Sequence record: MN882349.1
Strand: one strand, 5' to 3'
DNA length: 64,000 bases
From: Escherichia phage Ec_Makalu_003
The position numbers and the translations under genes are program-made. Position 1 is the first letter of the stretch. Each line of letters begins with the position of its first letter. This document shows, one piece after another, positions 21,299 through 24,111 of the stretch. A model generated the notes under the pieces. It did no database searches. It saw only the letters and a program-made list of their open reading frames with translations, and was not told where the DNA came from.

Positions 21299-24111
21299 GC
21301 GTGATTGAAGGGATTAACGCAATGGCGACGGATGAACACCCGCTACATTTAGCGCACCCGTCTACACTAGAAACTAAAATTGATTCAAACGGCATTGAAT
21401 GGATTTTATCAAAGCATGATGATAAATGGTATCCTAAAAAGTTTTCTGACTATCTGAAATTAAACAGACCGCAGAAAATAAGGATGCAAAGTACAGATCC
21501 AACAAATTATAAGTTCTTTAAAGATAGTGACAATATTCGCACGCGGTATATGCGATTGAAGAACTTGCGAAGGGCGAATATTAAAACTCAGTATACCCCT
21601 GAAATGATCGCAGAGTGGAAACGATGCCGTAAAGATATTGTGTATTTTGCCGAAACCTATTGCGCAATTACACACATCGACTACGGTACAATCAAAGTAC
21701 AATTGCGTGATTATCAGAAAGATATGCTTAAGATCATGCACGAAAACCGCATGAGTGCGCATAAACTCAGTCGTCAGTTGGGTAAAGCACTTGATGTTAA
21801 TACGCCTATTCCTACCCGTGATGGGTTTAAACGTATGGGGGATGTTAAAGAAGGTGATCAGATCTATGCGCCTAATGGTCGTTTAGTTAATGTTGTATAT
21901 GCAACGGAATACCAGTATGATCGCAAGTGCTACGAGGTTGTTTTAGATACTGGCGCTAAGGTTGTTGCTGATGCCGATCATATCTGGACGGTATACGAGA
22001 AAGTCGGTAAAAATTATGTCAAGCGTGATATTACAACTCAGGAAATGATCGATAAGGGTATTACAACCAAAGATCAATCTCGTTTTAAAATCGCTAAGAC
22101 TAAACCGATTAAGGGAGAAGCTAAAGATCTTCCGGTTGATCCGTATACTTTAGGCTATTGGTTAGGTGATGGTCACACTGATGCAGCACGAATCACCCAC
22201 CATAAGGACGATAGCGGCATTCTGACGCATTTAAACGAGCAAGGATATCATACCTATACTTTTGCAGATAAACGCAATAGCAACGTTCTCACAACGTCTG
22301 CGCATGGTTTATGGGAAGGACTTAAAACCGCTGGCGTTGCTGGCAATAAGCATATCCCTATGGAATACCAATTCGCTGATATTGACCAGCGCACTGCCTT
22401 ACTGCAAGGTATTATGGATTCTGACGGATGCATTAATAAAAATGGTTATGCTGAAATTACATTAAAACTGAAACCGCTTATCGATGACATTTATTCGCTG
22501 TTGTGCGGATTGGGCTTTAAGCCGAAGATGAAAGAAAAAGTGGTAAAAGGTACTGTATATTACAGAATTTCATTTAATGCATATGCAGATAAGGGTGTGT
22601 GTCCGGTTCGAATGGAACGGAAGAAAGTAAACCTTATTAATTCTTGCGAAGATACAAGAACAGATTTTCTTTTTATTCGTGAAATTAATCCGGTTGAATC
22701 CCGTCCGGTAAAATGTATTCAGGTTGACAGTGAGGATAAGCTATATCTGTGTGGTCGTGAATTTATTCCAACTCACAATACTACCGCTGTAGCAATATTC
22801 CTTGCTCATTATGTATGTTTCAACAAAGACAAAGCTGTAGGTATTCTTGCACACAAAGGATCGATGGCGGTCGAGGTTCTAGAACGTACCAAACAAGCGA
22901 TAGAATTATTACCAGACTTCTTACAACCAGGAATAGTAGAATGGAACAAGAAATCAATTGTATTAGAAAACGGATCTAGTATCGGTGCATATGCATCATC
23001 ACCCGATGCCGTGCGCGGAAACTCCTTTAGTTTCATATACATAGATGAGGCAGCCTTCATTGGTTCGTGGAGTGATTGTTGGTTAGCGATCCAACCAGTA
23101 ATTTCTTCCGGTCGTGAATCTAAGCTGATCATGACCACGACTCCTAACGGACTTAATCACTTTTATGATATATGGCAATCGGCTATTGATGGTAAAAGCG
23201 GTTATGTACCTTATGAGGCGGTTTGGCATTCTGTTAAAGAACGTCTTTACAATAAAGCTGATATATTCGATGACGGTTATGAGTGGTCATCTCAGGCGAT
23301 CGCCGGATCTAGTCTTGAGCAATTCTTACAGGAACATAACGCTGAATTTTTCGGTAGTTCCGGTACTCTGATCAGGGCAACCACACTATCAAGATTATCC
23401 TTTATTGACGTTGTTAATGATAACGGGTTTTATCAGTTTGAGAAACCGAAAGAAGGTAGAAAATATGTTGCTACACTAGATTGCTCAGAGGGTCGAGGAC
23501 AGGACTATCATGCATTGCAAATCATTGATATTACTGAATTTCCTTATAAACAGGTTGCAGTATATCACAGCAATACTACGTCACATTTTATATTACCGGA
23601 TATTGTCTTTAAATATCTCATGATGTATAACGAATGTCCAGTTTATATCGAGCTAAATAGTACGGGTGTATCTATTGCTAAGTCTCTTGCGATGGATCTT
23701 GAATATGATAATATTATTTGCGACTCATTCATAGATCTAGGGATGAAACAATCCAAAAGGTCTAAAGCAATGGGATGTTCGGCACTAAAAGACTTAATAG
23801 AAAAAGATAAGCTGATCATTAATCATAAAGGAACTATTCAGGAGTTGCGCACATTCTCCGAGAAGGGGGTAAGCTGGGCGGCAGAAGAAGGTTTTCACGA
23901 TGATTTGGTCATGAGTCTGGTAATATTTGGTTGGTTAACAACTCAAGAAAAATTCGCCGAATATGCAGGAAAAGACGAAATGCGGATCGCCTCCGAAATA
24001 TTCCGAAAGGAATTAGATGAATTGGGGGAAGAATACGCGCCCGTGGTAATATATGACGGTGCAAACGGCATCGAAGAATATAGGCCGCGTGAAGGTCTAA
24101 CAATGATATAA
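21295..24111 (+). CDS. 17: terminase large subunit gp17, interrupted by an intein
   Basis: 938 aa versus about 610 aa for T4 gp17; flanks match T4 gp17 ([17 protein letters not shown]...SRQLGK / [28 protein letters not shown]-terminal [26 protein letters not shown]). Confidence 0.9.
21787..22779 (+). mobile_element. intein (331 aa) with LAGLIDADG homing endonuclease in the gp17 Walker A motif
   Basis: Insertion between K164 and T of GKT; starts [13 protein letters not shown] (Ala1), ends PTHN with +1 Thr; LAGLIDADG motifs LGYWLGDGH and [11 protein letters not shown]; block B-like DADHIW; block F-like VKCIQV with Cys. Confidence 0.8.

Follow-up and report, generated by a model that had tools for sequence, protein, structure and literature searches.

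Class 3 inteins were noted in 2010 in 'terminase large subunits of bacteriophage', with ATPase P-loops as their main site (PMC2807308), and the inteins of mycobacteriophage large terminases (TerL) include those at a 'classic' K|T P-loop site, with splicing and endonuclease activity shown for several (PMC5050341). A 2025 survey of actinobacteriophages lists 293 terminase inteins and 287 class 3 inteins (bioRxiv 10.1101/2025.01.02.630785). Here we describe a 331-amino-acid (aa) insert in gp17, the large terminase encoded by gene 17, of Escherichia phage Ec_Makalu_003 (MN882349.1), found in a 64-kb window, the whole stretch of DNA that was analysed. The insert is very probably a functional class 3 intein that houses a LAGLIDADG homing endonuclease, lodged in the Walker A P-loop of a T4-type gp17 from the genus Krischvirus. 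This reading draws on what the analysis shows, namely that the insertion is exact, that homology and fold agree, that the catalytic residues are conserved under purifying selection and that the population pattern is polymorphic and mosaic; how the reaction proceeds, how efficient splicing is and whether the endonuclease is active we infer. The mechanism and the niche, a class 3 intein in a phage terminase or helicase P-loop, were already established, and what appears to be new is the host, a T4-type Terminase_6 gp17 of a coliphage. Our literature searches found no publication describing this Krischvirus gp17 intein.

The class 3 prototype is the intein of mycobacteriophage Bethlehem, called 'MP-Be DnaB' by Tori et al. 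2010 (PMC2807308) and TerL1-c by Kelley et al. 2016 (PMC5050341). We located it in the large terminase gene just upstream of the portal gene (AY500153 7260..9971), as residues P141-N481, which reproduces the published numbering of His65, Trp67, Lys319-Cys320-Ile321, Thr339, Asn341 and Thr+1. A tblastn search of Bethlehem 30-52 kb, the region with a DnaB-like helicase, did not find an intein homologue. The terminase gene is labelled 'hypothetical protein gp11' in GenBank. By blastp the Bethlehem and window inteins align end to end (31% identity, E 6e-44), and both have a two-motif LAGLIDADG endonuclease lying within a split Hint domain, the His65/Trp67 numbering, a PVKCI core, THN followed by Thr+1, a Cys-to-Asn spacing of 21 residues (block F-G reads PVKCIGID...LTHN in Bethlehem) and, as host protein, a phage terminase ATPase domain. 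They differ at residue 1 (Pro in Bethlehem, Ala here), in length (341 against 331 aa) and in terminase family, which is Terminase_1 for Bethlehem and Pfam Terminase_6 of the T4 type for the window, where the host is a low-GC (guanine plus cytosine) phage of a Gram-negative bacterium. The insertion sites differ as well: TerL1-c occupies a poorly conserved helix (PMC5050341), whereas the window intein lies at the Walker A K|T.

That site is shared with TerL1-a, the P-loop intein of Cjw1 gp8, which also sits between the invariant P-loop Lys and Thr (PMC5050341). The Cjw1 junctions read ...ARKNGK|ALDVETPI...PTHN|TELL and those of the window ...SRQLGK|ALDVNTPI...PTHN|TTAV, so that the intein N-termini are near-identical; both inteins show the class 3 signature and enclose a LAGLIDADG endonuclease, and they are 32.5% identical overall. 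The TerL1-a hosts, however, are actinobacteriophages with Terminase_1 proteins, unrelated by sequence to the T4-type Terminase_6 of the window, and the inteins that Kelley et al. 2016 described in terminase_6-like proteins all occupied the C-motif site 'f' and none the P-loop (PMC5050341).

The best matches among solved structures are the Mycobacterium smegmatis DnaBi1 intein (6BS8/6OWN), which is inserted in a P-loop and splices by the class 3 route (PMC6195587), and the Mycobacterium chimaera DnaB-1 intein (6RIX/6RIY). Both share the PVxC...PTHN region with the window intein, but they are mini-inteins of 139-145 aa that lack an endonuclease, interrupt a bacterial replicative helicase and are followed by Ser+1. 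In overall architecture the closest known elements are PI-SceI of yeast VMA1, TliVMA and PI-PfuI, which have the same bipartite Hint and LAGLIDADG organisation and homing life style and are the best whole-model folds; unlike the window intein they are class 1 (Cys1, Cys+1), larger (454 aa) and equipped with an extra DNA-recognition region, and their identity to it is ~16%.

An exact insertion in the Walker A motif of gene 17

The window spans the structural-gene region of a T4-type coliphage that resembles RB49 (Krischvirus, a genus of the Straboviridae) and is collinear with RB49 at ~97% identity except for a few indels. Its gene 17 shows 99.9% nucleotide (nt) identity to the 'large terminase protein' gene of Escherichia phage Ec_Makalu_002 (MN709127), and the extein parts of the product match Pfam Terminase_6N (E 1.5e-38) and Terminase_6C (E 4e-23). 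The open reading frame (ORF) is divided as follows.

21295..24111 (+): gene 17 precursor ORF (large terminase with intein), 938 aa, predicted 106.9 kDa, from the ORF list
21295..21786 (+): N-extein, aa 1-164, ending in the Walker A residues ...SRQLGK, from alignment to RB49 gp17 and T4 gp17 (3EZK)
21787..22779 (+): intein, 331 aa, predicted 37.5 kDa once excised, an exact 993-nt insertion, from homology to solved structures, fold and prototype
22780..24111 (+): C-extein, with Thr+1 at 22780-22782 (ACT), from alignment to RB49 and T4 gp17

Alignment of RB49 gp17 (607 aa, 1824 nt) to the window ORF opens a single gap of exactly 331 aa or 993 nt, outside which the two proteins are 99% identical, and the 993-nt insertion is equally exact relative to seven intein-less Krischvirus alleles. 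At the DNA level the junctions read ...CAG TTG GGT AAA | GCA CTT GAT ... CAC AAT | ACT ACC GCT..., and because neither junction shares a base, the intein boundaries cannot be shifted. Alignment to the T4 gp17 structures 3EZK, 3CPE and 2O0H places the insertion point between the Walker A Lys and Thr (SRQLGK|TT), equivalent to K166|T167 of T4. The last residue of the N-extein is thus the invariant P-loop Lys (T4 K166), and the C-extein opens with Thr+1, at once the Walker A Thr and, by prediction, the second nucleophile, and continues through the rest of the ATPase domain and the nuclease domain.

A preliminary description of this DNA, made from the letters alone, had placed an insert at 21787-22779 of a 938-aa gp17 ORF and exactly inside Walker A. 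The RB49 protein and DNA alignments return the same coordinates, and the T4 gp17 alignment confirms the position within the motif. It had also put the precursor at about 330 aa longer than T4 gp17; the excess is real, and the exact figures are 328 aa over T4 gp17 (610 aa) and 331 aa over RB49 gp17.

Splicing and endonuclease domains

Within the intein, a Hint-type splicing domain is split by the endonuclease, with the following limits and key codons.

21787..22101 (+): N-terminal splicing region, blocks A and B, intein residues 1-105, from alignment to 6BS8 and the beta-strand Hint topology of the model
21787-21789, 21928-21930, 21970-21972, 21979-21981 and 21985-21987 (+): codons of Ala1 (GCA), Cys48, Asp62, His65 and Trp67, in that order
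22102..22641 (+): LAGLIDADG homing endonuclease domain, intein residues ~106-285 (limits approximate), from Pfam, fold and conservation
22147-22173 (+): LAGLIDADG motif 1, LGYWLGDGH, residues 121-129, with catalytic Asp128 at 22168-22170
22399-22428 (+): LAGLIDADG motif 2, which includes LLQGIMDSD213G, with catalytic Asp213 at 22423-22425
22642..22779 (+): C-terminal splicing region, blocks F and G, intein residues 286-331, from alignment to 6RIX/6BS8 and to Bethlehem
22714-22716, 22771-22773, 22774-22776 and 22777-22779 (+): codons of Cys310, Thr329, His330 and Asn331, in that order

A phmmer search of the PDB returned the class 3 DnaB inteins of M. chimaera and M. smegmatis as top matches (E 3e-18 to 3e-17), with both termini aligned; this match, like the one to Bethlehem, goes well past what chance would give. 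Residues 1-69 align to 6BS8 without a gap and with identical numbering (A1, C48, D62, H65, W67), and the C-terminal 28-35 residues align to the segment PVRCVEVDNPxHLYLAGxGMVPTHN of 6RIX/6BS8. Class 3 inteins are recognised by a first residue that is not a nucleophile, a Trp in block B (position 12), a Cys in block F (position 4), a Thr in block G (position 5) and, at +1, either Ser or Thr (PMC2807308, PMC5050341); the window intein has Ala1, Trp67, Cys310, Thr329 and Thr+1, that is, every one of these residues. The Trp-Cys-Thr triplet formed by Trp67, Cys310 and Thr329 corresponds to W67, C118 and T137 in 6BS8 (PMC6195587) and, by alignment, to W67, C320 and T339 in the Bethlehem prototype. 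Cys310 at block F position 4 is the predicted first nucleophile, and the intein terminates in His330-Asn331 followed by the nucleophilic Thr+1.

The same signature extends through the family. In an alignment of 58 homologues of the window intein, Ala1 is present in 51/55, His65 in 57/57, Trp67 in 57/57, Cys310 in 58/58, Thr329 in 57/57 and Ser or Thr at +1 in 56/57. The endonuclease residues Asp128 and Asp213 are conserved in 55/58 and 56/58, respectively. The exteins of these homologues are T4-type and other terminases (GK|T), many bacterial dCTP deaminases (EGK|SSLGRL) and others, including DWK|T. Residue -1 is Lys in 54/54 homologues, despite the unrelated exteins.

The endonuclease assignment comes from both sequence and structure. 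Inside the insert, Pfam LAGLIDADG_3 scores 28.8 bits against a gathering cutoff of 22.5. Both catalytic Asp residues, each followed by Gly, are intact, as are the family-invariant endonuclease residues K188, G123 and W125. We built an AlphaFold2 model of the intein from an alignment of 58 sequences retrieved by a large protein search, with a mean predicted local distance difference test (pLDDT) of 96.9 and a predicted template-modelling score (pTM) of 0.93; pLDDT exceeds 90 in the endonuclease domain, and each LAGLIDADG motif heads an alpha-helix (119-128 and 199-213). Foldseek searches of the PDB with the whole model matched PI-SceI (template-modelling score relative to the query, TMq, 0.76-0.80), followed by the endonuclease-bearing inteins TliVMA, PhoVMA and PI-PfuI (TMq 0.66-0.73). 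The split Hint domain matched 'The class 3 DnaB intein from Mycobacterium smegmatis' (score relative to the target, TMt, 0.78-0.84), and the middle domain matched I-DmoI-type monomeric LAGLIDADG enzymes (TMt 0.51-0.59). I-DmoI itself, I-Tsp061I and the endonuclease domain of PI-SceI were among the matches.

These results agree with most of what the preliminary description had read from the insert. The motifs it quoted are in place: the N-terminal 13 residues, DADHIW at 62-67, VKCIQV at 308-313, PTHN|T at 328-331/+1 and both LAGLIDADG motifs (121-129 and 205-215). Its class 3 assignment is borne out by the gap-free 6BS8 alignment, the end-to-end Bethlehem alignment and all signature residues, and its embedded two-motif LAGLIDADG endonuclease by the above-threshold LAGLIDADG_3 match, the PI-SceI/I-DmoI fold and both catalytic Asp residues. 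It erred in taking the +1 Thr as the Thr of the triplet. That place belongs to Thr329 in block G (position 5), the first residue of THN; both residues are present. The profile searches that it proposed as a check had a divided outcome, with LAGLIDADG_3 above its threshold and Pfam Intein_splicing below threshold at E 0.13. NCBIfam likewise gave only sub-threshold matches, to intein-containing ribonucleotide reductase (RNR), V-ATPase and radical S-adenosylmethionine (radical-SAM) models. Because the Pfam and NCBIfam matches for the splicing domain are sub-threshold, the Hint assignment is drawn from the sequence alignments to PDB entries, the fold and the alignment to the prototype.

By homology to the Bethlehem and M. 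smegmatis class 3 inteins, the insert should splice in four steps of a kind established in related inteins (PMC2807308, PMC5222942, PMC6195587). The 107-kDa gene 17 precursor would be translated with its ATP-binding loop split and should lack ATPase activity. Cys310, assisted by His65, Asp62 and Trp67, would then attack the Lys164-Ala1 peptide bond to form a thioester branched intermediate, from which the N-extein would move to the side chain of Thr+1. Cyclisation of Asn331 would free the 37.5-kDa intein, and an O-to-N acyl shift would leave a native SRQLGK-TT P-loop in a 69.5-kDa gp17.

Mutagenesis of T4 gp17 has shown that its Walker A Lys and Thr are essential for packaging. Our search of the phage collection gave one gene 17 match per genome, and the intein-plus phages are plaque-forming isolates, including ones from Nepal, Denmark and Russia. 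Since Walker A is essential, gene 17 is single and the phages form plaques, the motif is expected to be restored and splicing to be efficient. An intein that has lost splicing, with gp17 function supplied by a second terminase or a helper, is for this reason hardly credible: besides the single gene 17 match per genome, no other window ORF of at least 150 aa lies in a terminase-gene position (the other ORFs were not scanned against protein families), the catalytic residues are all conserved under purifying selection, and ten independently isolated lytic phages carry the intein. Nor is removal of the insert as RNA much of a contender, although group I introns that encode homing endonucleases do interrupt essential genes of T4-like phages, which gives a group I or II intron with an endonuclease ORF some precedent here. 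An Rfam scan of 21000-24500 returned no family at E <= 1, the insert keeps the reading frame and contains no stop within a 938-aa ORF that is intact in all nine intein-plus alleles extracted, strong purifying selection acts on the Hint-domain protein sequence that forms its two ends, and the endonuclease is nested within the Hint fold as in PI-SceI. On these grounds we rejected the intron, to which we give next to no chance.

A different chemistry is somewhat less remote and still very unlikely. Ala1 also occurs in class 2 inteins of the KlbA type (PMC2807308), in which the +1 residue attacks the N-terminal junction directly, and a variant of class 1 could likewise be considered. Class 2, however, needs Cys+1 and Asp at block F position 4, where the window intein has Thr+1 and Cys along with the complete Trp-Cys-Thr triplet, and class 1 requires Cys, Ser or Thr at position 1, where it has Ala. 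The nearest relatives, solved and characterised, are all class 3.

Population pattern and possible homing

In the phage collection, the intein occurs in 11 records that represent 10 distinct phages (from Nepal, Denmark, Russia and elsewhere), and ~41 distinct Krischvirus phages lack it; the latter supply the intein-minus terminase alleles that the preliminary description had proposed to look for in related phages. The intein sequences fall into three lineages, between which synonymous divergence (dS) is 0.15-0.20 and the ratio of non-synonymous to synonymous divergence (dN/dS) is 0.06-0.13. For the endonuclease domain alone, dN/dS is 0.07-0.13 at dS ~0.07-0.17, and blocks F/G show zero non-synonymous differences among the three lineages. 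With dN/dS low in both parts, purifying selection acts on both the splicing and the endonuclease activities.

Once freed, the intein, a late-gene product, would cut intein-less gene 17 site-specifically in co-infecting phages, as the precursor possibly would too, and recombinational repair from an intein-plus copy would spread the element and convert the flanking extein sequence. The regions that bear on this lie on either side of the insertion point.

22780..23223 (+): mosaic C-extein tract of 444 nt directly downstream of the insertion point, from dS and per-bin divergence
21766..21786 (+): upstream half of the presumed homing site, from the variable sites of 16 alleles, nearly invariant in the intein-less ones, which read ...CTCAGTCGTCAGCTAGGGAAA|ACTACCGCTGTAGCAATATTC..., with the extent of recognition presumed

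Between three haplotypes of the mosaic tract, which covers the Walker B region, dS reaches 0.74-0.88, against 0.03-0.05 elsewhere in gene 17. The window haplotype is found only in the window and Makalu_002, and the next closest sequence is 88% identical; with no phage record closer than this, the donor of the divergent tract would be an unsampled phage. A second divergent haplotype is confined to the intein-plus phages ECD7, kvi and PTE-Eco09 and, in part, the intein-less phage JSE. Divergent tracts thus occur in 4/10 intein-plus and ~1/41 intein-less phages (Fisher p = 0.004, uncorrected for relatedness). The intein sequences of ECD7, FL15 and PTE-Eco09 are identical, and FL15 differs by ~15% from the other two in the adjoining C-extein tract. 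We regard the mosaic tract as a likely co-conversion footprint of homing from diverged donors, and the presence of identical inteins in different extein haplotypes, beside a divergent 444-nt tract, suggests active homing. Upstream of the junction, position -4 carries a synonymous GGG>GGT change in 8/9 intein-plus and 0/7 intein-less alleles.

The most serious rival holds that the intein splices and that its endonuclease is inactive or decaying, the pattern being left by vertical inheritance and ordinary phage recombination. T4-like phages recombine heavily regardless of inteins, the common flank haplotype accompanies the intein in six of the ten intein-plus phages, and in JSE part of a divergent tract is present with no intein beside it. 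These last two findings count against a functional intein with an active endonuclease, as do the sub-threshold Intein_splicing match and the fact that splicing, its branched intermediates and DNA cleavage all enter the argument by inference. The JSE tract and the six common flanks also mean that the link between the mosaic tract and homing is statistical and not proven. A dead endonuclease nevertheless fits poorly with an intact catalytic Asp pair and intact K188, G123 and W125, with the low dN/dS of the endonuclease domain over an appreciable dS, with a fold that is modelled at pLDDT >90 and with an identical intein in different extein haplotypes. We judge it unlikely, at something like one chance in five, and keep to the functional class 3 intein with an embedded homing endonuclease.

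Within the upstream half-site we observed one further difference. At 21768..21771, 16-19 nt upstream of the insertion point, the window has CAGT and Makalu_002 has ATCA (CTC AGT and CTA TCA), a cluster of 4 nt that is synonymous for Leu-Ser and includes an AGY-to-TCN switch of serine codons. The ATCA form is also present in intein-less Makalu_001, from the same country; Makalu_001 and Makalu_002 both came from Nepalese sewage. This cluster could be target-site variation of the homing endonuclease.

The conserved residues of the splicing domain also raise the question of conditional splicing. In DnaBi1, Cys48 and the catalytic Cys form a reversible disulfide, a 'redox trap' that blocks splicing under oxidative stress (PMC6195587), and splicing is reversibly inhibited by zinc (PMC6195587, PMC7360933). 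The pair of Cys48 and block F Cys and the Asp62-x-x-His65 motif lie at positions identical to those of DnaBi1, and because they are kept, the redox or metal state of the infected cell could control the maturation of gp17 ATPase and nuclease. It is a long shot, in our estimate, that the intein serves as a conditional post-translational gate on a T4-type packaging motor, or that endonuclease-driven co-conversion is the engine of the local mosaicism (dS ~0.8) across the Walker B region of gp17. In the intein family, Cys48 is conserved in at least 90% of homologues; in DnaBi1 this residue was called non-conserved but essential (PMC6195587).

Relatives, annotation and other features of the window

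Outside the sequenced phages, a 69%-identical intein occupies the same SRQLGK|TTAVAI site in a metagenomic T4-type gp17 fragment (a 549-aa partial protein on a 2014-bp contig labelled Clostridium sp.). Because its extein is <=72% identical to any sequenced phage in the collection, the fragment represents an unsampled T4-like lineage, probably mis-binned as Clostridium. More distant inteins (37-44% identity) are present in other gp17 homologues that have the T4-type terminase domain, including one found in a Tara ocean sample. Beyond Krischvirus, the phage genome collection offers no relative above 38% identity, and the nearest ones belong to actinobacteriophages, among them the TerL inteins of Omega and Cjw1 and the Rizal/Catera gp206 family. 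A scan of IMG/VR with the intein returned only the ECD7 genome itself and distant relatives (<=35% identity), with no extra close alleles.

Intein GC content is 40.2% and that of the genome 40.8%, a match that points to long-term residence in low-GC phages. Recent transfer from high-GC actinophages was considered and rejected, given that the intein has the GC content of its genome and the nearest actinophage intein is 38% identical.

A 2024 paper states that inteins are unreported in coliphages (PMC11162368), a statement contradicted by coliphage helicase inteins that are already annotated, for example in Escherichia phage Sciku. Intein annotation is absent from the GenBank records that we inspected, which cover six of the ten intein-plus phages, and the locus thereby exposes an annotation gap. 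In three of the ten records, PP400778 (FL15), PP358550 (FL04) and PQ306574 (PTE-Eco09), the terminase is named 'replicative DNA helicase DnaB', a label that presumably stems from the likeness of the intein to DnaB inteins. In the stretches examined, the misnamed genes lie at 1501..4317 for FL15 and 24..2813 for PTE-Eco09.

The gp17 intein would provide a natural class 3 example in a T4-type coliphage, in a family whose T4 member is the viral packaging motor studied in most depth. Both T4 gp17 and the RB49 nuclease domain have solved structures. An E. coli host and close intein-less relatives make homing, co-conversion, splicing kinetics with native exteins and the coupling of splicing to packaging tractable.

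Elsewhere in the window, comparison with RB49 revealed three further differences.

3246..3809 (+): 187-aa ORF with HNH_3 (E 2.5e-9) and AP2 (E 8.7e-8) domains, occupying a 555-nt insertion that RB49 lacks, with gene 5.1 on one side and the PAAR-protein gene on the other
~32357..32366: ~87 nt missing relative to RB49, near the gene 23 / gene 24 intergenic region
37577..37644: ~68 nt extra relative to RB49, near the hoc/inh region

The ORF at 3246..3809 looks like a free-standing homing-endonuclease gene.

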